From NCBI GenBank assembly GCA_964291265.2, contig OZ219747.1:3520001-3584000 (forward strand): a DNA stretch of 64,000 bases. Direction: 5' to 3'. The stretch's first letter is position 1, and the number at the start of each line of letters is the position of its first letter. Position numbers and translations under genes: made by a program. This DNA is from Alphaproteobacteria bacterium (GTDB lineage Bacteria; Pseudomonadota; Alphaproteobacteria; SP197). The notes under the pieces are model-generated. The model ran no database searches. It was not told the DNA's origin and saw only the letters and a program-made list of their open reading frames with translations. Shown here piece after piece: positions 36,231-51,829 of this stretch.

Positions 36231-38549
36231 TCAGCCGATCAGAACGTCCTGGCCACGTCTGACCAGGCTGTGAGCGATGATCATGCGCTGGATTTCACTG
36301 GTTCCTTCCCAGATCCGCTCCACGCGCAGTTCCCGATAGAACCTCTCTGCCGCGTACTCGCGCATATAGCCACGACCGCCGAAGATCTGCACCGCCCGAT
36401 CAGCGACCCGATTGGCCATTTCCGAACAATGGAGCTTCGCCATGGAGCACATGGCGTGCTGGACCTTGACGTCCTCCCCCTCATCGATAACCGCGGCGAG
36501 GCGGTGAACCATCAGGCGGCCAGCCCACAGCTCCACGAGGCTGTCGGCCAGCATGAACGATATCGCCTGGTTGGCCACGATCGGCCGGCCGAACTGGATG
36601 CGCTCCAGTGCAAAGGCGAGCGCTTCGTCGATGAGGCGGCTGGCGGCCCCGCAGCAGCGCGCCGCGATACCGAAGCGTTCCTGGCGAAACCACTCATGGA
36701 TCCCGGTGCGGCCATCGCCTCCAGGATCGATCAGTGCGTCGGCGGTCACCCTGACCGAATCGAATCGCACGATCGGATGATGGGAGGGGTAGGTGTGGCT
36801 GTAGGCGGGCGTGCGCACGACCTCGACACCCCTGGCATCGCTGTCGACATAGAAGAGCCCGTGGTGACCATTCTCGAAGCGCGCCTGAACGATGACGATG
36901 CCGGCCCGGTTGAAGCCGGTGACATGCCACTTCGTTCCGTTCAGCACCCAGCCGTTTCCGGAACGCACAGCGGTCGTTTCGATGGCATCGACATCGCTCC
37001 CCGCTCCTTCTTCGGTGACAGCGTAGCACTCGCTCGTGGCGCCTTCGAGCAGTGGCTGGACCCAAGCTTCCATCTGTGACGGTGTCGCCGCGCGCACCAG
37101 GAAGGGAGAGACATCATGGAAGAAGAAGCCGACGCCGTTGGTCAGCCTTCCGACCTCTTCCCAGATACCGGCCATGGCCCCGGCAGTGAACCCGCCGCCG
37201 CCGGCCTCCTTCGGCACCTGAGGCAGCCACAGGCCCATGTCCCGGGCAGTACGGAGATGACGCTCCCGGATGTCATCTGGAATCTGTCCGTCATTCATCT
37301 CGGCAACCTGCTCGAGTGGCAGGCGCTCGGCATCGATGAAGGGTCGCAACCTGCTGCGCCAGGCCAGGGCTTCGGCGCTCTCGCCGGCACCGGTGAGAGC
37401 ATCCTGGCCCCGTTTCAGCAGGCCATCGGCAATGATCACGCGCTGGATTTCGCTGGTACCTTCCCAGATCCGGTCAACCCTGAGTTCCCGGTAGAATCTC
37501 TCGGCTACATTCTCGCGCATGTAACCGCGCCCACCGAAGATCTGCACGGCGCGATCGGCCGTCCGGTGCGCGAATTCCGAGCAGAAGAGCTTGGCCATGG
37601 CGCACTTGCCATGGAGAACCTTGACGTCGTCTTCCCGGTCCATGGCCTGTGCCACGTCGTAGGTCATGAGTCGTCCTGCCCAAAGCTCGGTCAGACTGTC
37701 AGCCAGGGGAAACTGGACCGCCTGGTTGTGCCAGATCGGCCGGCCAAACTGAACGCGGTTCCTGGCAAAGGCGAGTGCCTCGTCGATGAGACGGCTGGCG
37801 GCGCCGCAGCAGCGTGCCGCAATCTTCATTCGTTCCTGGCGAAACCAGGCGTATGTCCACTGAAGACCGTCACCTTTTTCGTCGATGAGACTGTCCGCAG
37901 GCACGTGGACGTCGCGGAACTCCATCTCCAGGTGATGGCCACGGCAGTGATGCATGTAGCGCGGCGTGCGCAGGACGGTGACACCGGACGCTCCCTTTTC
38001 CACCCAGAACAGCGCGTGGCGGCCATCCTCGAGCCTTGCCTGGAAGATGATCCAGTCGGAGAGGTTGGCTCCGGTGACATGCATCTTGGTTCCGTTGAGG
38101 AGCCAGCCGTTGCCGTCGCGCCGCGCGGTTGCCTCGATGGCACCGACGTCACTGCCGGTTCCGGGTTCGGTAATGGCATAGGCGACCCGCTTGCGTCCCT
38201 CGATCAGGGGCCGGATGAAGGTCTCCATCTGCCAGGGGGTCGCCGTGTGCCAGAGAAACGGCGACAGATCATGATAGCAGCCCCACAGGCCGTTGGTGGC
38301 CCTGCCCAGGGCTTCCTGGATCACGGCAATCTCGAAGCATGACAGATGGCGACCGCCACTCTCGTCCGGAAGGGAGGGATAGAGGAGACCCATCTCCTCC
38401 GTTGCCCGGAGAATTGCGGCATGGGCTTCATCGGCGATGAAGCCATCGTTCATCTCGGCCTCGACCTCCCGCGGCTGGAGTTCATTCTCGACAAGGGCGC
38501 GCAAGGCCTCCTGCCATTGCCGGGCCTTCGCGGACATCGGATAGACCAT
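36231..38549 (-). CDS. Tandem double acyl-CoA dehydrogenase (two complete ACAD units in one ORF)
   Basis: Two copies each of ITEP/VTEE..GSD, LNGTK.HVTG, R.QFGRPI..NQA, QIFGGRGYM and RIWEGTSEIQR; AGGAG RBS. Confidence 0.9.
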   Translation of the reverse strand: MVYPMSAKARQWQEALRALVENELQPREVEAEMNDGFIADEAHAAILRATEEMGLLYPSLPDESGGRHLSCFEIAVIQEALGRATNGLWGCYHDLSPFLWHTATPWQMETFIRPLIEGRKRVAYAITEPGTGSDVGAIEATARRDGNGWLLNGTKMHVTGANLSDWIIFQARLEDGRHALFWVEKGASGVTVLRTPRYMHHCRGHHLEMEFRDVHVPADSLIDEKGDGLQWTYAWFRQERMKIAARCCGAASRLIDEALAFARNRVQFGRPIWHNQAVQFPLADSLTELWAGRLMTYDVAQAMDREDDVKVLHGKCAMAKLFCSEFAHRTADRAVQIFGGRGYMRENVAERFYRELRVDRIWEGTSEIQRVIIADGLLKRGQDALTGAGESAEALAWRSRLRPFIDAERLPLEQVAEMNDGQIPDDIRERHLRTARDMGLWLPQVPKEAGGGGFTAGAMAGIWEEVGRLTNGVGFFFHDVSPFLVRAATPSQMEAWVQPLLEGATSECYAVTEEGAGSDVDAIETTAVRSGNGWVLNGTKWHVTGFNRAGIVIVQARFENGHHGLFYVDSDARGVEVVRTPAYSHTYPSHHPIVRFDSVRVTADALIDPGGDGRTGIHEWFRQERFGIAARCCGAASRLIDEALAFALERIQFGRPIVANQAISFMLADSLVELWAGRLMVHRLAAVIDEGEDVKVQHAMCSMAKLHCSEMANRVADRAVQIFGGRGYMREYAAERFYRELRVERIWEGTSEIQRMIIAHSLVRRGQDVLIG

Positions 38550-38644
38550 GGACAACTCCTTACCGGACGGAACGACCGTCGCTACACTGCGACCGGGCGC
38601 CATGGTGGCGCAAGACCTTCCCCTTCTCCGGGAGTGAACGACAC

Positions 38645-40444
38645 ATGACGGACCATCGTCTCGACCGCATGCTCAATCCCCGATCCATTGCCGTGGTCGG
38701 CGCTTCTCAGCGGGAAGGCAGTGCCGGTCACGGGATGATGCACGGCCTCATCAACGCCGGGTTTGACGGCGACATCTTCCCGATCAATCCGCGTTACCGG
38801 AACGTCGCCGGTCTCCCGTGCCATGAGTCCCTCACGGACCTGCCGCAACCTGTCGACCTTGCCATGCTCGGCGTCAACAGCATTCGCCTTGAAGGACAGC
38901 TCGACGATGCCATCGCCGCAGGCGCCGGAAGCGCCGTCATCTTCGATACCTGCTATCTTGCCGGGGAGAGCGACAGAGGGCTTCTCGACCGCCTGAAGAC
39001 CAAGGCAAGGGCCGCCGATCTCCCGGTCTGTGGCGGCAACGGCATGGGGTTCATCAATCTCTCGCGGCGGCTGCCCGTCACCATCTTCGACGCCTCGTCC
39101 AAGTTGCGTGACGGGGGCAACGTCGCCTTCATCACCCATTCGGGAACCGTGTTCAGCGAAATCGGCATCAACGACTTCCGCTATGCCTGCAATCTGATCG
39201 TCTCCTGCGGCCAGGAGATCAACGGCACCATGGCCGACTACATGGACTATGCGCTCAACATGGATACGACAAGGGTCGTCGCACTCTTCATCGAGGAGGC
39301 GCGAGACTCCCGGGCCTTCACGGCGGCCCTGGAGAAGGCGCGCGTGCAGGACATCCCGGTGGTGGCCATGAAGGTCGGCCGGACCAGGCTCGCCGCCGAA
39401 TTCGCTCGCGTTCATTCCGATGCCGATACCGGCAATGACAAGGCCTACCAGGCCGTCTTCGATCACTACGGCGTCATGCGCGTCGGCAGCATGGATGAAA
39501 TGGCGAATCTTCTCGCCCTGCTCTCCCACCGACGCCCGCTCGCTCGGGGCGGGATCGGCGTCGTTCTCGATTCGGGCGGCGAAAGGGAGATGTTCACCGA
39601 CCTGGCTGAAGACACCAAAGTTCCCCTGGCCGTCATCACGAGCGAGACGCAGGCGCGTATCCGCCCTCACCTCCACCATGCCCTGGAGCCCGTCAATCCC
39701 CTCGATGCCTGGGGCACCGCCCACAACTACGAGGATGACTTCGAGGCCTACTTTCTCGCCATGTCACAAGATCCCGGTGTCGCCATGGTCACGTTCTGTG
39801 GTGATTTCCAGTGGAACCCCAGTGTCGAGCGCGGCTACGCGAAGGCGCTCGTCGCGGCATCCGGTCAGACCGGCAAACCCGTTTCGGCCATCCTCAACAC
39901 TCCGATGTCAGGCCTGATGACGGCTGGCCGGGACATGAGCAGGCACGGCATTGTCGTCCTTTGCGGCACCAGGGAATCGCTGCTTGCCATCCGGCACGCG
40001 CTTGCCTGGCGGAACCGCACGCTCCCTCGGCCTCCGGTGGCCGCTCCGTGCCACCCTGCCCTTGACGACGATTTCCCCGCCGCGCTTGGCCTTGCCCGAT
40101 CCACGCGAGAGAGTCGCATGAGCGCGATGCCGACCATTCTCCTGAAGGTCGACCCTGCCTTCGGTCCTCTCGTGGGCCTGCGCCGCGGCGGGTCGGATGA
40201 GGAGGTGTGGGCCCTGCCGGGAATCGATCCCGCAACGGCCTGCACGCTCATCGACCGGCTCTACGGGACATGGTTTCCGGGTACCGCCGACCTCCGTCGG
40301 GGTCTCGCCGGTGTCGTGTCGCTGTTTTCGTCCATCGCACCGGACCTTGCAGTCAAGGTGACGTCACTTGAACTCGGTCCGATTCTCGAAGAAGGGGGCG
40401 GCATGGCATGTGCCGGCTTCACGTGGCAGAACGCCGGGGCGTGA
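38645..40444 (+). CDS. Acetate--CoA ligase (ADP-forming) family protein with shortened ATP-grasp tail
   Basis: NPRSIAVVGAS, FPINPRY, GGNGMG, THSG, KVGRT, NPLD. Confidence 0.82.
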   Translation: MTDHRLDRMLNPRSIAVVGASQREGSAGHGMMHGLINAGFDGDIFPINPRYRNVAGLPCHESLTDLPQPVDLAMLGVNSIRLEGQLDDAIAAGAGSAVIFDTCYLAGESDRGLLDRLKTKARAADLPVCGGNGMGFINLSRRLPVTIFDASSKLRDGGNVAFITHSGTVFSEIGINDFRYACNLIVSCGQEINGTMADYMDYALNMDTTRVVALFIEEARDSRAFTAALEKARVQDIPVVAMKVGRTRLAAEFARVHSDADTGNDKAYQAVFDHYGVMRVGSMDEMANLLALLSHRRPLARGGIGVVLDSGGEREMFTDLAEDTKVPLAVITSETQARIRPHLHHALEPVNPLDAWGTAHNYEDDFEAYFLAMSQDPGVAMVTFCGDFQWNPSVERGYAKALVAASGQTGKPVSAILNTPMSGLMTAGRDMSRHGIVVLCGTRESLLAIRHALAWRNRTLPRPPVAAPCHPALDDDFPAALGLARSTRESRMSAMPTILLKVDPAFGPLVGLRRGGSDEEVWALPGIDPATACTLIDRLYGTWFPGTADLRRGLAGVVSLFSSIAPDLAVKVTSLELGPILEEGGGMACAGFTWQNAGA

Positions 40445-41232
40445 GCGACTTCCGGCAAGACGTCATCGAGGGGCTCGCCGCCTCTTCGAGATACCGGTAC
40501 CTCTCCGCCGGTCTTCTGGCGCGGACCGCCGACTGGGCCATGGCGCGTCACGCAAGGCCGGGACCGGCTCTCAAGGCAGCCAAGCGCAAGCTCCATCAGG
40601 TGTTCGGCGCCTATGCCGTGAAGCTCGATTCCCTGGGACACCACCTTGACGCTCTCGAGGCCGGTGGCGAGACACCTGCCGTGTGCCGGCGCATCCTCAA
40701 GCTTCACCATTCCACCGCGGAACGCCTTTGCTTCATGGAGGAATTCCACGCAACCATATGGAAACATTGTGGAATACCACGACACATCCTCGATCTGGCT
40801 GCCGGACTACACGCGTTCTCCCTGCCGTTTTCAGGCCTTGACCCGGCGGTTTCCTACACGGCCATCGAGGTCGATCGGCGCATGGTTGACGCCATCAGAC
40901 GCTTCCTGGCCATCACGCAACGGCCTGGGGGGTGTCTCTGGCATGATATCCTTGACGGGATTCCGCCGGACAACGCCGATGTTGCCCTGGTGCTCAAGAC
41001 CCTGCCCTGTCTCGAACGCCTGGAACCCGGGTCTGCCGTCGAACTCATGCATCGCCTCGACACCATCCCCACCATTGTCGTCAGCTATCCGGTGCAATCG
41101 CTGGGTGGCGCCAGGAAGAACATGCCACAGACCTATCGCGCCCAGGCCGAGGCTCTTGCGGCCGCTTGCGGAAGGGACATCGCATTTCTCGATCTCAACC
41201 GGGAAATCGTTGCCGTACTGTCACATGGCTGA
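40441..41232 (+). CDS. 16S rRNA (guanine(1405)-N7)-methyltransferase family protein (ArmA/Rmt/Sgm/FmrO-like)
   Basis: KRKLHQVFGAY, HHSTAERL, ILDLAAG, DVALVLKTLPCLE, VVSYPVQSLGG..KNM..TY; GTGA overlap with the upstream stop. Confidence 0.82.
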   Translation: MSDFRQDVIEGLAASSRYRYLSAGLLARTADWAMARHARPGPALKAAKRKLHQVFGAYAVKLDSLGHHLDALEAGGETPAVCRRILKLHHSTAERLCFMEEFHATIWKHCGIPRHILDLAAGLHAFSLPFSGLDPAVSYTAIEVDRRMVDAIRRFLAITQRPGGCLWHDILDGIPPDNADVALVLKTLPCLERLEPGSAVELMHRLDTIPTIVVSYPVQSLGGARKNMPQTYRAQAEALAAACGRDIAFLDLNREIVAVLSHG

Positions 41233-41294
41233 GCTCTTGAAGACTGCCGATGGTCCCTCATAATGCATGGTGGACCGCATGAAGGATCCATGAC

Positions 41295-41828
41295 GTGAAA
41301 CACTTCCTGTCCGCCCTGGCACTCTGCGTTCCAGTCATGGCCCATGCCGACCTCGCGGGCGATCCCATGGTCCTGGACGGTGACACCTTGAGTTTCGGTG
41401 AGAAGGAGGTCGATCTCTTCGGCGTGCATGCGCCGACCATCACGCAGACCTGTGGCGAGAGTGGCCGTGTCTGGTCATGCGGCTGGGAAGCGGCCCTCCA
41501 TCTTGAGGAACTCGTCAGCGTCGGAAATGTCGTCTGTGTCGAAATCCCTGACAGCGGTTCGCCGACGCCTCTGGCCCGTTGCACCGCTGATGGAGTCGAT
41601 CTCGCCGGGCAGATGATCGATGCCGGACTGGCGGTGCGCGACGAGACCCTGGGCGATGACTATGCCGAGCGCGAACTGGCGGCCGCAACGCAGGAGCGGG
41701 GAATCTGGGCCGGCCCCTTCATCGACCCCGTCACGTGGGCCGAACGGGCCGGATGCGCCTGCAGTGCCCGCAAGAAGGCGCTGGCGGAGTCCGCCGCCCT
41801 GCTGAAGGACGAAAAAACGGCGGAGTAG
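41295..41828 (+). CDS. Secreted thermonuclease (SNase-like) family protein
   Basis: Signal peptide, VLDGDTL, LFGVHAP..QTC, GIWAGPF..P..W. Confidence 0.8.
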   Translation: MKHFLSALALCVPVMAHADLAGDPMVLDGDTLSFGEKEVDLFGVHAPTITQTCGESGRVWSCGWEAALHLEELVSVGNVVCVEIPDSGSPTPLARCTADGVDLAGQMIDAGLAVRDETLGDDYAERELAAATQERGIWAGPFIDPVTWAERAGCACSARKKALAESAALLKDEKTAE

Positions 41829-41861: not shown

Positions 41862-43061
<1,200 letters not shown>

Positions 43062-43212
43062 GACAACATCCTTCCCCACCGGACCCCACCATACCCCGCG
43101 AGGGGCGCTGCGCCACCAGGTCCGGCATCCCTGCCTGTTGCCACGACAGCGGGACGCCGTGCATCATGTCCGACGATGTCGATCACAACACCGACTCCAG
43201 GAGTTGAGAGAG

Positions 43213-44150
43213 GTGGATCACGAGTGGCTTCGGGACTGGTTGTTTCATGTTGATGAGTTGACTGCAGCGCAGCGCAAGGCAGTGGCGGCAACGCTTTCGG
43301 AGCGGGCGGAGGGTGTGGACACGCTGGCAGCGATCGAGCCGGGAGTGGGTGGCGAGCGACGTTGCCCGCACTGCGGCGTTGGCGGGGCTGCGTCTCGGGG
43401 CAAGGCGCGCGGTCTGCAGAAGGACCTTCGGCGCGCTCACGGGCACGGCGTTGTCGAGGCTGAACCAAGGGGAGCGCTGGCTGTCCCTCGTCGCTTCGCT
43501 TGCCGAGGGCGAGACGATCAAGGATGCACCGTGCGCTGCGGGATTGCACCGAACACGGCGCATCGCTGGCGCCACCGCTTCCCGACAACAGTCAGGCAGA
43601 CGCCGGAGCGGCTTGCCGGGATCGTCGAGGCAGACGGGGCCTTCGTTCCAGAGAGCCGGGACGCGCAGCGGAAGCTCGACCGCAAGCCGCGCCGGCGTGG
43701 CGGCAAGGCCAGGAAGCGCGGCCTCTCGTGCGAGCAGGTGCCGGTCCCGGTCACCGCTCGCAATCACGGTGTGATCCTCGGCCAGACCCTGACGGGGTTT
43801 AACGCAGACAGCGTGAAAGCGGTGCCGGGACCGGTGCTCGCCCCGGATACCCTGCGGGTCTCCGGCGCCAACCGCTGCTGTCCGCCCGTCGCGGCGGCGC
43901 TCAACATCCCTCACGCAAGCATCAACACCTCTGGCGGCGAGCGAGTCTGGAACACCATGCACGTTCAGACGGTCAACAGCCGCCGTGGCCAGATTGAGGA
44001 CTTCCTGCTCAAGCGGCGCGGCATCGCCACCAAGTACCTCGACAGCCATCTGCGATGGTTCCATCTCATCGAACGCGCCGACCAACCATCGCCAGGACCC
44101 TGTTGCCAACCGTGCCAAACCAGGGGCGCCAACTACCACTCCGGTGCCAT
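43213..44150 (+). pseudogene. IS1595-family transposase remnant
   Basis: CPHCG Zn ribbon, AHRWRHRF, LAGIVEAD, RGLS.EQVPV, HVQTVNS, RGIATKYLD; frameshifts and deletions. Confidence 0.8.
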
Positions 44151-44163
44151 CAGTGGGTTTCTC

Positions 44164-44295
44164 ATGATCTCCCTTCGCTCCTTGCATGCGTCCGACATAC
44201 ATCTCGCTAGTCCGCTTACAGGTCTGGCAGGCATGGAAGGCATGGCGGAGGATCGCGTTCGCTCTGCGCCGCGGACTGCCTTTGACGCGCTAGTA
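44164..44295 (+). pseudogene. Metallophosphoesterase (SbcD/YhaO-like) N-terminal fragment
   Basis: LHASDIHLASPLTGL...TAFDALV. Confidence 0.6.
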
Positions 44296-44339
44296 CCCCC
44301 CGAGGAGGGCGTGGGCGGTGGAATTCGCTGTCGTTCGAT

Positions 44340-44631
44340 CTCAACCGTCTCAGCAGCAACGCTCGCTTGCGGCGAACCAGCCCGGAAGACCCATCTGTTC
44401 GATCAACCTGTTGTCGACCGTTCGCGGGCGCGCGTGACTGGCCCGTTCACGGTAGAAGCCGTGCCAGCGCCCGTTGCAAAACCCATTGAGGCTGAGATCG
44501 ACGCCAGTTTGTTCGAGGCGTACCGCGGCACAGAGTCTCTCCCATTTGACACAGGCAACCGTGGTCGGGCTGGCGTCACAATTGTGAATAATCGAGTTGT
44601 CGAGAGCTCGACAATTGTGGAGTTGGAGTAG
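44340..44631 (+). pseudogene. Fragments of a type III-like DNA methyltransferase (Mod)
   Basis: LFDQPVVDRSRARVTGPFTVEAVPAP joined to the C-terminal AEID...YRGTESLPFD..G...IV...ES. Confidence 0.6.
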
Positions 44632-45315
44632 TGAGTGAGTGTTCCAGGAAGACGGTCGAGCATGTTGGAGACAGGCTCCTGCTTCCCCATCACTTGACGG
44701 TGTCTTCGGTCGCTATTGCCGATTTTTGCAAGCGCTGGCGTGTCATCAGATTATCGCTGTTCGGCTCGGTGCTGAGCGACGACTTCGGCAGATGGAGTGA
44801 CATAGACGTAATGGTGGAATTCGAGCCTGACGGCGTGCCCGGTATCCGGTTTTTCAGCATGGCGGCAGAGCTGTCAGTGTTGTTTGGCAGGCCTGTTGAT
44901 GTTGTAACCCTGCCTGCAGTTGAACGAAGTCCCAACCATATTCGACGAAGGGCAATTCTAGAGTCGGCCGAGGTCATCTATGCGCATGACGACTCTTACC
45001 TGCTCGACATGCTCGTCGCGGCGCGCAAGGCAATCCATTTCGCGCAAGATCTCGACTTCGCGCGGTTCGCGCAGAGCGATCTGCACCAAAATGCGATCTT
45101 CAAGGCTCTGGAAATTGTCGGTGAAGCCGCGGCCCGCATAAGCGAACAAAAAAACAAGCACACCCTGACATTCCATGGACCGATATGGTGGGACTCAGGA
45201 ACCGGTTTGTACATGTCTATTTCGAGATTGACCTGACCGTGGTCTGGAACATCGTCAGCGACGACGTTCCGTCGTTGATCCGCCAGCTGGAAAAACTTCG
45301 CCACCGGAGGTCGAG
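44631..45315 (+). pseudogene. MNT nucleotidyltransferase + HEPN (DUF86) toxin-antitoxin pair, fused and frameshifted
   Basis: LFGSVL..DF...SDIDVMVEF; YLLDML...LEIVGEAA; shift near the A7 run (45148-45154); HEPN motif RNRFVH. Confidence 0.8.
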
Positions 45316-45317
45316 TA

Positions 45318-45700
45318 GTGAGCAGAACGACGATCGACCGGCTGATCGTCAACTCTCCCTACGAAGAGCCGGCACGGCCCTGGCCCTACGGTCGAGGGTC
45401 AAGGTTTTTGATCTTGCAGAGGGCGCAGATCAGCCGGATATGTCACGGCCTCTCAAGATTCGAGGCGTTCTACGCTCCGGGCACTTTCGTGGAGATACCA
45501 CTGGCCAATCGTATCCGTGCAAGAGTGAAGGATTGGCGGAACGAGGGACATCTCGGTGCTTCGGGCGTGAGCGGTGATTGTTGGAGTGCTGGATTAATCG
45601 AAGAGAATTCGAGAGCAGGCGCTTTTTCTTCTGTCAGCTCGAGGTCGTCGAGACCCTGATCTGACTGACGGATGCAACCGATGCCGAAAAGGCCGGTCTA
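45318..45700 (+). pseudogene. N-terminal remnant of a type III-like restriction helicase (BPTD_3080-like)
   Basis: LIVNSPYEEP, IPLANRIRARVKDWR and FFFCQLE.VETLI across frames. Confidence 0.65.
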
Positions 45701-45734
45701 GTACCTGATCCACGCGACGACCGCCGTGCGCTAG

Positions 45735-45754
45735 TCCGAAGTTCCGGACGATTT
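45735..45754 (+). mobile_element. Isolated IS1634-type terminal repeat
   Basis: CTAG then TCCGAAGTTCCGGACGATTT, the reverse complement of the ends at 134-153 and 698-717 except for the terminal base. Confidence 0.7.
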
Positions 45755-45864
45755 GTCGCGGTAGGGAACCGGGTTATCCCGGTCCCCCCGCAGTCGCGGT
45801 AGGGATGCGCATTGCTGCGCACCCCCCGCACAGATCCGGACTTGGACGTTAATCCATCCGGCTC

Positions 45865-46699
45865 CTACCTCGGGTGCTTGACGGTAAACCGCTGGTCCGG
45901 CCATGGGTGGCGGATGGAGACGCGCGGCCAAAGAAGCTCGGTCATGCGCTCCAGTCGCTTCCAGTCAAAACGGTGGCGCTGGGAGCGGCGGCGGATCGCT
46001 CGCAGCCATAGGCGTTGCAGCCTGTGGCGGAACGTGCGCAGCCATCGGGTCGACCCCGGGACGGCGAAGTAGTTGAACCAGCCATGACAGACCCGCCCAA
46101 GCCACATGCCGACCTCCCATATATCGTGATGCCGTCGATTGCGAAGCACCTCCTCGATGCGCGCCAGGGTCCTTGCGACCCGTTTTGCGACCGGCTTGCG
46201 ACCAAGCCTGAAGCGTCCTCTCCGGGTCTCCGTGCAAAAGTGCGTGAAGCCCAGGAAGTCGAACGTCTCCGGCCTGCCCGTCCCGCGAGATCGCCGGTTC
46301 GCCTTAGCAAACCGGCCAAACTCAACGAGACGGGTCTTGTCCGGGTAAAGGGTGAGACCAAAGCGGTCCAGCCTCTCCCGAACGTCGCGAAGGTATGTCT
46401 CCGCATCCCGCTTGTGCTGGAACCCGACCACAATATCGTCCGCGTAGCGGACAATGATCGCTTCACCGTTCGGAACCTTCGGACGCCATGCCTTGTGAAA
46501 CCACAGATCGAGCACGTAGTGCAGAAACACGTTCGCCAGGCAGGGGCTGACAATGGCCCCCTGCGGTGTCCCCTTGCCCGTATCCGACCAGTCGGTCCCT
46601 TCCATGACGCCAGCGTTCAGCCACTTGATGATCAGCCGGATGACCCGCTTGTCCCCGATCCGTTTCCCGAGCATCGCAACCAGATGGTCGCGGTCGAGC
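45865..46699 (-). pseudogene. ltrA: Group II intron reverse transcriptase/maturase, N-terminus deleted, no En domain
   Basis: GTPQGAIVSPCLANVFL, RYADD, FDFLGF, GWFNYF; stop abuts DV. Confidence 0.9.
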
Positions 46700-47912
46700 C
46701 TTGATCCGGTTCTCCATGTCTCCCCGAGCACAGTACAACTGCTCATAGAGTTCCCGAGCGCCGACCTCCTTCCTGGGGATGGTCGTCACGACATAACGAG
46801 CGTTCTTGCCGCGCGGTCCCGGTAGCCATTCCGCCTTGGCCACCACTCGCCGCTCGCGGGACCATGACTTCTGCGTGCGATACCGCAGATCCCGATACCG
46901 TCTGGATGGCTTGCCGGACACCAGACAACGCCGCCTCGACTTGTTGAGTGCCTTCGTGACCATGCTGTTCAAGCGAGGATTCTGACCATATCCAAAGACA
47001 TAGTCGACACCATGGTCCTCGCACCAGACCATGATGTCGTCCGTGCCGAAGTCACAATCCCCCCGCACCACGATCCGTGTCCGGGGCCACGTGCCGCGGA
47101 TCTGCTCAACGATCCGTGACAGCTCATCCACCGAGCCATCCGCCGCGCCATGGTCGGCCGTCCGCAAACGGCAGCGCAGGATGTGCTCGCCGCAGACGAC
47201 GAAGAGCGGCAGGAAGCAATGGTGGTCGTAATAGCCGTGGAAGTACTTGCCCTCCTGGTCGCCATGCACCGGATCGTCGGTGGCATCAAGATCCAGAACA
47301 ATCTCCTCGGGCGGTGCCGCATGGCTCTCCAGAAACAGGTCCACAAGAAGACGGTCCAGTGCTTCGTGATCGGCCACGATCTTCTTGTAGCGGTCCAGGC
47401 TCGCCTCATTCGGATCGCCGAGTTCCAGGCGGTTCAGCGTGCTCGAGGCCGCCAGCACATGTCCACGGTCCCGCTCGCGAACCCGTCTCGCTCCCTCCAC
47501 ATCGTCGATCCCGCAAGCCAGGGCCAGAGCAGGGTCGTCACGCAGACGGTCATGATCGTTGAGATCCTCGTAACCCGGAGCCAAAGCGATGATGCGCTGC
47601 GCCACCAGTGTCGTCACATCGTGTTCAATGCGACTGGGATCACGATAATCAACAAAAGCGTCAGCAACACGCTCCGTCACGTTGAAAAGCCTGTCTGCTT
47701 CCCGCAACAGAAGCGCACCACCGTCGGAGGTCATGCGGCCACCATCGAAATTGGCCACAATCTGCCGCCGTCCGAGACCTTCAAACTCCAGTTGTTGTGC
47801 TGAACACTGTGTCGCCATGTGGATGGGCTCCTTGGTGCGTGTAACTCATTGGTCTTATTCATATATCACAAACCCCATCCCCATCAATAGGAAACTTGGT
47901 GACAAATCCGGG
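46700..47912 (-). mobile_element. IS1380-family element, 3'-truncated, inside the intron (transposase starts at 47818)
   Basis: FDGGRMTSDGG, GYEDLNDHD.LR.DP, LDLDATDD.VHG.QEG, VRGD, YCARGDMENRIK; left end CCCGGATTTGTCACCAAGTTTCC. Confidence 0.9.
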
Positions 47913-48290
47913 TTAGTTCCTTTCCTCTGCGGCCCCTCCACGACAGAGGGACAATTGAAAGACCTCCCAGGTCCCGGTGGACTGCTTCGGCGCGTGCCAT
48001 GGTTCTCGGACCCCGCGGAGCCCCTGCTCGCCTCACCAACGCGGCACACAGGGTGTTGCCTTCGGCCCATTGGACGACCTCGGCACTCCGGTTTCACAGT
48101 ATCTCGGGCCTCAATAACCCGGCCCACGCCTGCCGCTCGCCAACGCTTCGCCTTACGCCTCACGACGCACGACGCATGGTTCACGGAGAAAGCGGTGGTT
48201 AGCCTCTCTTCGTGCCGGGACTTGCACCCGGCAACATTCCACCAGTTTGCCTGGCGCACCCGAATGGCCTCCGCCACCAGCTGACCTGCC

Positions 48291-48500
48291 TCATCCGGTA
48301 AGACTCCACCGATCAGGCTGACCGGTGGTCTTCGCCTCGCGTGCACCTGCAAAGTGATCGAGTGCGGCGGCAAACTTGTCGCGGCAACCGGGATTGCAGA
48401 AGCCGACGACATCGCCATTGAATTCAATGAGTGAGTCGGCGGCGACCGGATCTCCCGACCAAGGGCAGGTCGCGTTGATGCAGTCGTCGGGCTTGAGCAC
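48291..48500 (-). CDS. Small YHS/TRASH-like metal-binding protein
   Basis: INATCPWSG.PV, VVGFCNPGCRDKF; GAGGAG RBS before the GTG at 48500. Confidence 0.7.
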   Translation of the reverse strand: MLKPDDCINATCPWSGDPVAADSLIEFNGDVVGFCNPGCRDKFAAALDHFAGAREAKTTGQPDRWSLTG

Positions 48501-49648: not shown

Positions 49649-51763
49649 TCAGCCCAGAAAGTCGAAATCGGCTGCGGTGATTTGCGACGCCTGGATGCCC
49701 TCCAGCGTGATCGATCCGCTATCGTAGGTGATGACCGTGTCATCACCCGACTGGACAATGGTGAGATCATCGAAACTCATGACTTCACGCCAGTATTCGA
49801 CGACACGGCGGCCGTCCTCCAAGTATCTGGTATAATGTGAGGTCCTGATGTTGATGATGTCCCGGCCGTCCTGAAAGTCGACGATCGTGTCGTTGCCGTT
49901 GTCCCCGTCCCACTGTTCCCCCCTGTGGGGAACAACGGCGCCGACGCTCAGTAAGGTATCCATGTAGTCCACCATGTCGTCGTCGTCGCCCGGGGAAGCA
50001 GCAAAGACAAACCGGTCATTGCCGCCGCCGCCCTTGAGGGTGTCGTCGCCGGCAGCGCCGAACAGCCGATCGTCGCCGTCGCCGCCCTTGAGGGTGTCGT
50101 CACCAGCATTACCGTAGAGGTAGTCGACACCCCTTCCGCTTTCGAGGATGTCGTCACCGGCCCCGCCACGGAGGTGGTCGTTGCCAGCGCCGCCGTAAAG
50201 CGTGTCGTCGCCGTTTTCGCCATAAAGGTAGTCGACGCCGTCGCCGCCGTCGAGGTAGTCGTCGCCGTCTCCGCCATAGAGGACGTCGGTGCCATCCTCG
50301 TTGTCGCCGCCATAAAGCGTGTCGTTGCCGTCACCGCCATAGAGGTCATCCTTGCCGGCGCCACCGTAAAGCGTGTCGCCACCGCCGCCGCCGGTGAGGA
50401 TGTCGTCGCCGGCTCTGCCATGGAGGCGATCGTCGCCGTCGCCACCGGTCAGTGTGTCGTCGCCGTCACCGCCGGTCAGCGTGATGCCGCTGCCGGTCCC
50501 CACCAGGAGGAAGTCGTCTGCACCGAGGGAACCCGCCCACACGCCCGACAGGGTGATGGTGTCGCCGTCGTCGCCGTAGCGAATGATGGTATCGGTGCCG
50601 TCCTGCTCGATGACCAGCACCGCAAACTCGCCGGATACGCCATCCAGGCGAATCCTGTCGCCACCCCCGAAGTCGGTAATCGTGTCATCGCCGTCGCCGA
50701 CCGCGAACACGAAGAGGTCGCTGCCCTTGCCGCCGGCCAGCGTGTCGTCGCCGGCACCGCCGGTCAGCGTGTCGGCGCCCCTGGCGCCACGCAGGGTGTC
50801 GTCGCCAGCCTCGCCCATCAGCGTGTCATTGCCCTTGCCGCCCCCCAGGGTGTCGTCGCCAGCCCCGCCGATCAGTGTGTCGGCGCCCAGGCCGCCATAG
50901 AGAAGGTCGTCGCCGGCTCCACCGGTCAGCGTGTCGGCGCCCCCGTAGCCGCGCAGGGTGTCGTCGCCATCACCACCGGTCAGTGTGTCCGCGTCCTTGC
51001 CGCCCTTCAGCACCTCGCCGCCAGCAGGCCCGCCGCTCGAGGCGTCGCCGGACGTGCCCTGCGGCGGCGCACCCTGTGCAAGAGCGTCTGGCGAGACAGC
51101 CTCCTCGCCGCCAGTCTCCGGCGGAACCGTCTCGACGGGAAGGAACCGGAAGTCGTCCGCGCCCAGGGAGGCCGCCGTCACGCCCTCCAGCTTGATCGTG
51201 TCGCCGTCGCCGTAGCGGATGACGGTATGGAAGCCCTGCTGCTCGATCACAAGATCCCCGAAGCCGCCGGACACGCCGGCGATCTCGATGATGTCTCCAG
51301 CCTCGAAATCGCCGATGTAATCAGCCCCGTCGCCGACCGCGAACGCAAAGGTGTCATGGCCACTGCCGCCATAGAGCGAGTCCGTGCCCCGGCCCCCGGT
51401 CAGCCTGTCGACGCCCCGGCCGCCGAACAGGCGGTCGTTGCCCGCACCGCCATCGAGAGTGTCGTCCCCGTCGCCGCCATAGAGCGTGTCATCGCCCGCG
51501 CCGCCATCCAGCGTGTCATGGCCCGCGCCTCCGTCCAGCGTGTCGTTCCCCGCGCCGCCGTCCAGCGTGTCATCGTCCGAACTGCCGGGGTTCATGTCGA
51601 GAAAGTCCGCGTCGGCGCCCGGGCTTGCGGTTCCGCCCGTCAGCGTGTCGTCCCCGGCGCCGCCGGTGAGGATATCGTCGCCGAGGCCGCCGGTCAGCGT
51701 ATCGTCGCCGATACCACCCGTCAGGGTGTCGTTGTCAGCGCCGCCGATTCGCTCGATAGCCAT
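49649..51763 (-). CDS. Three-module RTX Ca-binding repeat protein
   Basis: Many GGxGDDTLx repeats; three F.F..GDG.D.I.DF...ITL.G..A..L.A.DF caps; GGAGGG RBS. Confidence 0.92.
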
Positions 51764-51795
51764 GATAGATCCCTCCAGATTCTGTTCGGAGCCAG

Positions 51796-51829
51796 ATTTT
51801 ACTCCCCCCCCCCCCCCAAAGCAAGTCAA
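51796..51829 (-). promoter_or_regulatory. Promoter candidate with a G14 homopolymer between the -35 and -10 elements
   Basis: Minus strand reads TTGACTTGCTTT-G14-AGTAAAAT; C14 on the plus strand at 51804-51817. Confidence 0.65.

Follow-up and report, generated by a model that had tools for sequence, protein, structure and literature searches.

Why should an alphaproteobacterium that lies outside the aminoglycoside producers keep a homologue of the Arm/Rmt 16S rRNA methyltransferases on its chromosome, behind a CoA-ligase-like gene, and what would the enzyme do there? The gene, rmt, sits in a 64,000-nucleotide stretch of contig OZ219747.1 (positions 3,520,001 to 3,584,000), which is the whole of the DNA first analysed and is called the window here. 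A preliminary description had placed an ArmA/Rmt/Sgm-like 16S methyltransferase of 263 aa at this position, and the assignment was borne out by the profile that it had named as a check, with Pfam FmrO (PF07091) scoring 135.9 bits against a cut-off of 27 (E 2e-39) and matching over nearly its whole length. The general Rmt model of NCBIfam (NF000466) gave 154 bits, below its equivalog cut-off of 250, and gave higher scores (193–230 bits) to the three scanned relatives that bear tgt2, a second tgt gene introduced below; the named RmtB-H families gave at most 93 bits against cut-offs of 500–550. Structurally, all eight entries found in a PDB sequence search matched, the best being Sgm (E 3e-33), and an AlphaFold2 model built on a 114-sequence alignment (pLDDT 94) combined helical N1 and N2 domains with a class I SAM fold, superposing on Sgm with a TM-score of 0.88 and on RmtB with 0.83. 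By profile, fold and catalytic residues, the window Rmt is a genuine member of the family, and it lies outside every named Rmt family.

The reading frame starts at a GTG, and its first four bases, GTGA, contain the stop of the upstream open reading frame (Table 1), an overlap that had been noticed before and that likely couples the translation of rmt to that of the CoA-ligase-like gene. An upstream ATG at 40408 was considered as the start and ruled out, since the relatives begin at the position equivalent to the GTG. A sigma-70-like site at 41237–41264 is no more than chance would give (one such site against 0.8 expected). A contig from another sample (run X2) covers rmt and differs at five positions, none of them inside the gene, so the odd residues of the protein are not assembly errors.

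Table 1. Positions of rmt, its neighbours and two distant genes of the same genome (window coordinates, unless preceded by a contig label)
Feature	Position	Strand	Basis or remark
790-aa protein, two tandem acyl-CoA dehydrogenase units	36231-38603	-	conserved in relatives
CoA-ligase-like gene, upstream neighbour	38645-40444	+	CoA_binding_2, Succ_CoA_lig; upstream of rmt only in a 14-genome clade
GTGA stop/start overlap, CoA-ligase-like gene with rmt	40441-40444	+	sequence
rmt, FmrO/Kgm-family 16S rRNA methyltransferase homologue, 263 aa	40441-41232	+	PF07091, NF000466, fold, residues
Staphylococcal-nuclease-like gene, ancestral downstream neighbour, outside the module	41295-41828	+	weak PF00565 match of an orthologue
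pcaF, 3-oxoadipyl-CoA thiolase, convergent	41862-43079	-	TIGR02430 over cut-off; synteny
Mobile-element remnants: an IS1595-like ORF, a nucleotidyltransferase that runs into a HepT-like piece, a fragment of a group II intron reverse transcriptase, and an IS1380-type transposase	43060-48500		
726-aa protein with glycine/aspartate-rich nonapeptide repeats, RTX-like calcium-binding type	49649-51829	-	judged from sequence only
Short RsmI, sole RsmI of the genome, outside the window	C2:2752957-2753640		807 kb from rmt
RpoB reading frame (L056)	C2:2934110-2938963		~1618 aa in the window's clade, ~1380 in most other members

The neighbourhood had been called a core metabolic operon, which overstates it: there is a same-strand run of three genes (CoA-ligase-like, rmt and nuclease-like), whereas the acyl-CoA dehydrogenase gene is divergent from this run and pcaF convergent, so neither belongs to it. 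Across the order (33 genomes, all of one family), rmt is single-copy in 27 genomes, and in 13 of these, among which one has the genes in pieces (G003) and another has them split over two contigs (G021), it is preceded by rsmI and by the second, divergent tgt (tgt2), which overlaps the start of rmt by 4 or 8 bases. The other 14, including the window genome (G000), form one clade in which only the canonical tgt is present and the CoA-ligase gene lies upstream, overlapping rmt by 4 bases in 12 of the window genome's 13 clade relatives. We found no tgt2 in any of these 14 genomes, nowhere in G000 and in none of the six rmt-less genomes; within the order, it occurs only beside rmt (13/13 genomes, against 0/6 without rmt). 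In G000, 807 kb separate blocks that adjoin each other in the tgt2-bearing genomes, and the break falls where tgt2 was, with no remnant. The nuclease-like gene follows rmt in 27/27 genomes and is also present in the 5/5 rmt-less genomes searched, and pcaF marks, by synteny, the ancestral downstream block. The link between rmt and the CoA-ligase gene is secondary: the rearrangement in which tgt2 was lost also brought the CoA-ligase gene upstream of rmt. The 'metabolic operon' thus came about by accident, and the informative context is an rsmI-tgt2-rmt module that is invisible from the window. Counting the module's genes over the 33 genomes, all three are present in 13, all but TGT2 in 14, the short RsmI alone in two and none in four, the last being genera g3 and g5, of which the three g3 genomes served as the outgroup and the fourth genome (G026) is absent from the tree. 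The CoA-ligase-like protein itself (599 aa, with CoA-binding and flavodoxin-like domains and no Pfam match to an ATP-grasp domain) keeps its length in relatives, at 68–89% identity.

Functionally, the question becomes what the enzyme retains. We aligned the Rmt proteins of 27 order members with RmtB1, RmtC, ArmA, RmtF1 and RmtG from plasmid records, taking residue roles from work on RmtC (10.1101/2023.03.13.532395 and 10.1101/712810). The window Rmt keeps the equivalent of RmtC R211 and those of H54, Y60, S107, R111, D188, K204 and M245, the latter seven being invariant in 27/27 order members; the D160 equivalent is Glu in the window Rmt and in 24 order members (of 27). At the docking surface, the N1 positions K20, R39, K47 and R50 are still basic and the N2 basic residues K67/R68/K71/K72 are not retained, while K236 has become Gln219 and R241 has become Ala224, which Arg225 adjoins; N140 and Q212 are replaced by His and Leu, respectively. 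In RmtC, a single Ala at 236 or 241 is described as reducing resistance only partly, and the activity of the window Rmt may be lower than that of RmtC because two basic residues of the loop differ. For a wider comparison, we searched metagenomes with a profile built from 62 homologues and took the best 80 of 533 confirmed loci, among which there are several near-duplicates and two loci of this order. Gln at 236 occurs in 16/67 and His at 140 in 14/67 of these homologues, and an aliphatic residue at 212 is common; Arg or Lys stands at 241 in 63/67 tgt2-linked and 6/6 unlinked homologues, with Ala not among the common residues. Motif I does read DLAAGLHAF, as first reported, and its drift from C to A (23/27) and from P to A (19/27) is order-wide, with the change from N to H found in 1/27 within the order and in 19/85 homologues outside it. 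The target is in place: the single 16S gene found in the host is identical to that of E. coli at 1395-1420, 1482-1507, 1509-1525 and 778-800, and the G1405 site and the docking helices are thus present in E. coli-like form.

Changes that set in with the loss of tgt2 (R241 to A, V or H, E246 to P and a 2-residue deletion at the N1-N2 hinge, each in 13/14 genomes), together with the lower NF000466 score of the window Rmt, favour an alternative in which the protein drifted after the loss, still binding 30S and SAM but methylating weakly or not at all, and is retained for a part in ribosome assembly, as a binding factor or for a different target. We consider this unlikely, because the catalytic and SAM-pocket residues are invariant and because Arg at 242 (10/14 tgt2-less genomes) and at 211 (14/14) looks compensatory. 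At the tested Rmt positions, the residues of the 6 metagenome loci without a TGT cannot be told apart from those of the 67 loci with one; the loop changes seen in the window's clade therefore do not signal TGT2 loss in general. Selection argues in the same direction. The dN/dS of the window Rmt against 8 relatives is 0.22, the highest among seven genes compared, with neighbouring genes at 0.09–0.21 and three of them at 0.19–0.21. From tgt2-bearing to tgt2-less pairs, the ratio for Rmt goes from 0.139 to 0.176, and those of three control genes go from 0.116 to 0.213, from 0.079 to 0.126 and from 0.083 to 0.120 (simple pairwise counting on non-independent pairs, 8 vs 55), so that rmt, in what is a single phylogenetic event, outlives tgt2 without gene-specific relaxation. 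A pooled value of 0.37 for the tgt2-bearing genomes was set aside, as distant pairs are saturated in dS, and the 8 close pairs were used. Two genomes (G017, 94% complete, and G022, 100% complete) have lost rmt outright, through a clean deletion of tgt2 and rmt, so the gene is not essential.

We posit, with a rough probability of 0.72, that the window Rmt is a constitutive m7G1405 methylase of its own 16S rRNA, as predicted from its residues and fold. Such methylation would lower the intrinsic sensitivity of the ribosome to aminoglycosides of the gentamicin/kanamycin type. By homology to RmtC, docking on h24/h27/h44/h45 would fall to the basic N-terminal domain, h44 would be distorted by His52 together with the loop that ends in Met228, and G1405 would flip into the SAM pocket, where Lys186 would position N7. 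Krm, a distant family member, is described as methylating G1405 (PMC2760815), and methylases of this kind are described as also altering decoding and stress phenotypes (PMC12406665). Within this reading, we would put retention for ribosome co-adaptation at about 60% and retention through antibiotic exposure at about 40%, as an estimate only.

Beyond the order, the same association recurs. A TGT lies adjacent to Rmt in 67 of the best 80 metagenome loci (36/38 of those with at least 3 kb upstream), and 66 of these score better as the divergent type; RsmI is present in 29. Against plasmids, the top 12 matches of tgt2 have 42–45% identity, after which identity drops to 35%, and the four plasmid records opened from among these 12 place the tgt beside rmtG (two records), rmtB2 and rmtD2, with a metallophosphoesterase gene between the divergent tgt and rmtB2 (L128:3980-6721) that found no match in the 80 metagenome loci. 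The gentamicin and fortimicin clusters may hold a tgt-like gene as well. An rsmH-tgt-rmtG-rsmL operon is mentioned in a review (PMC9311965); in the open-licence literature, we found no description of TGT2 as a distinct subfamily, or of the short RsmI. A weak search for fused Rmt forms gave no TGT fusion and one Rmt-RsmF/NOL1 fusion, a 656-aa protein (P0248) in which an FmrO domain is joined to an RsmF/NOL1-type cytosine-C5 methyltransferase.

TGT2 keeps the catalytic aspartates and the guanine-binding residues of TGT, with the equivalents of D102, D156, C158, Q203 and D280 invariant in 110/110 aligned proteins (background on TGT in PMC6165067 and PMC4425180). In canonical TGT, the Leu231-Ala232 peptide is described as flipping, its amide binding guanine N7 through water (PMC3660597). 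The corresponding dipeptide is Trp-Pro in 110/110 aligned TGT2 proteins and in 49/49 full-length metagenome copies. Because proline lacks an amide hydrogen and a cation can stack on tryptophan, the pocket may suit 7-methylguanine. The TGT2 proteins of the order (L014, L017, L025, L027 and L028) have lost three zinc-binding cysteines, which are kept in 48/49 metagenome copies. The tight linkage (a TGT beside 67 of the best 80 loci, 66 of the distinct type) and the retained catalytic aspartates could also mean that the native target of Rmt is a base first installed by TGT2, for example a 7-deazaguanine derivative, and that N7 of G1405 is not its natural target; this is quite improbable, since in 14 genomes Rmt is still under purifying selection although TGT2 is gone, and family members are described as working alone in E. 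coli (PMC2760815; PMC12406665).

The third gene of the module is a variant RsmI (RsmI* in our annotation). Genera g1, g2 and g4 (29 genomes) have the short RsmI only, and full-length RsmI is found in three of the four module-free genomes, with none in the fourth (G031, 81% complete). The short proteins score over the TIGR00096 cut-off and keep T46, R47, F144 and R174 in 27/27 analysed (of 29), R196 is I, L or V in the same number, and the C-terminal domain is missing, with 7–33 residues after position 236 vs 50–55. They group (SH 99) with 19/23 module RsmIs analysed (of the 29 in metagenome loci), apart from the alphaproteobacterial enzymes. In E. coli RsmI, R196 and W202 are described as holding G1405, and the enzyme as nearly inactive without its C-terminal domain (PMC13037946); ArmA is described as blocking E. 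coli RsmI (PMC3923132). The missing domain counts against activity of the short RsmI, but the protein is the only copy and its dN/dS is 0.08–0.13. Judged from these sequence features, it may tolerate m7G1405 and may have displaced the native gene.

As to inheritance, rmt was above cut-off in 0/397 other alphaproteobacterial genomes sampled, with four weak sub-cut-off matches, and for this reason must have entered the lineage by transfer at some point. Since then it has been a resident, vertically inherited gene, neither a mobile nor a producer gene. In a FastTree phylogeny of 149 rows, Sgm itself not included, the order's Rmts make up a single clade (SH 0.988) to which the clinical enzymes do not belong. 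The Rmt tree has the same main groups as the RpoB tree (30/33 genomes) across three genera. The same gene order was found in relatives from two sponge metagenomes of different studies (runs X4 and X7), in run X7 on one 12-kb contig at ~83–89% identity. One member (G008, L035) has a very long Rmt branch (1.15) and no direct CoA-ligase overlap, and its RpoB is also long-branched; RpoB of the window's clade carries an insertion of ~250 aa near the N-terminal third, with no Pfam match. A recently acquired resistance gene or a producer's self-resistance gene is the least probable explanation and is largely refuted: the absence from 397 other genomes of the class and the mobile-element remnants that start 1.8 kb downstream are outweighed by the congruence of the Rmt tree with RpoB, a GC3 of 0.71 (0.71–0.78 in neighbours), the same downstream neighbour in 27/27 genomes and aroB as the only member of the DHQ-synthase family. 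The mobile remnants have no tblastn matches in syntenic relatives, and the nearest of them (IS1595-like, sub-cut-off) lies past pcaF, in keeping with the original remark that no IS immediately flanks rmt. The non-producer, chromosomal status likewise holds, with no 2-deoxy-scyllo-inosose synthase found in the genome by a search that covered PF01761, whose one gene is aroB. Of the two roles first offered, the housekeeping-like one fits, with a single copy in 27/33 genomes, a tree in line with RpoB, neighbour-like GC3 and a dN/dS of 0.22, whereas 'resistance reservoir' applies only loosely, given at most 33.5% identity to plasmid enzymes (the best plasmid-borne match), the placement of those enzymes outside its clade and no sign of mobility.

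Taken as a history, an rsmI*-tgt2-rmt module would have entered the ancestor of three genera, where its short RsmI would have replaced the native RsmI, likely because m7G1405 hinders the latter; a later rearrangement would then have cut the module at tgt2, coupling rmt to an unrelated CoA-ligase gene and leaving the short RsmI gene 807 kb off. What is new here is that within the order tgt2 is never found without rmt, while rmt outlives tgt2, and that the module's RsmI, without the C-terminal domain and the G1405-reading arginine, probably replaced the native one. The asymmetry of loss is better explained if TGT2 acts on the product of Rmt than if Rmt acts on that of TGT2, on the strength of one event. 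We therefore entertain, as a tentative and on balance doubtful extension, that Arm/Rmt methylases are natively part of a co-adapted decoding-centre kit, in which Rmt would write m7G1405, the short RsmI would keep C1402 methylated despite m7G1405, and TGT2 would swap 7-methylguanine out of the RNA as an eraser or base converter. Against a simple eraser, resistant isolates are the source of the plasmids that have a tgt beside rmtD or rmtG. If the extension were true, it would amount to RNA demethylation by base exchange, and the order would be a natural knockout series of the kit, its order of loss placing TGT2 downstream of the Rmt product. More broadly, the presence of an Arm/Rmt-family gene among the old core genes of a non-producer lineage, in the same module that was the source of the mobilised rmtG, rmtD2 and rmtB2, bears on the origin of the clinical 16S methylases and on their native role. 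The order offers matched genomes that have or lack the TGT partner, and the variant RsmI offers a concrete and testable explanation of why m7G1405 and C1402 methylation are known to clash. From a surveillance viewpoint, the window rmt is a distant, non-mobile homologue, and its interest lies in the parent module and in the order's loss series.

Compared with known systems, the window Rmt has the same N1/N2/Rossmann layout as the producer enzymes Sgm (Micromonospora zionensis; PDB 3LCU/3LCV), Kgm and FmrO, and Sgm is its best match in both sequence and structure (E 3e-33, TM 0.88, 31% identity). Unlike those producers, its host is without the entry enzyme of the 2-deoxystreptamine pathway, and the protein has drifted in motif I and in the 237-246 loop. 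With the acquired enzymes ArmA, RmtB, RmtC, RmtF and RmtG it has the catalytic residues and the fold in common, at 21–33.5% identity, but it is chromosomal, inherited and not IS-flanked. The plasmid segments rsmH-tgt-rmtG, tgt-rmtD2 and tgt-phosphoesterase-rmtB2 carry a tgt that belongs with the order's tgt2 in one divergent subfamily (42–45% identity, canonical TGT reaching at most 35%); relative to the rmtG segment, the order's module is resident and has the short RsmI in place of RsmH, and in the window's lineage tgt2 has been lost. TGT2 shares the fold and the catalytic and guanine-binding residues of Z. mobilis and E. coli TGT, from which it differs in the Trp-Pro switch, in extra insertions and, in the order's copies, in the loss of the zinc ligands. 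The short RsmI, finally, shares T46, R47, F144 and R174 with the E. coli enzyme that forms Cm1402, and differs from it in having no C-terminal domain and in carrying I, L or V in place of R196.
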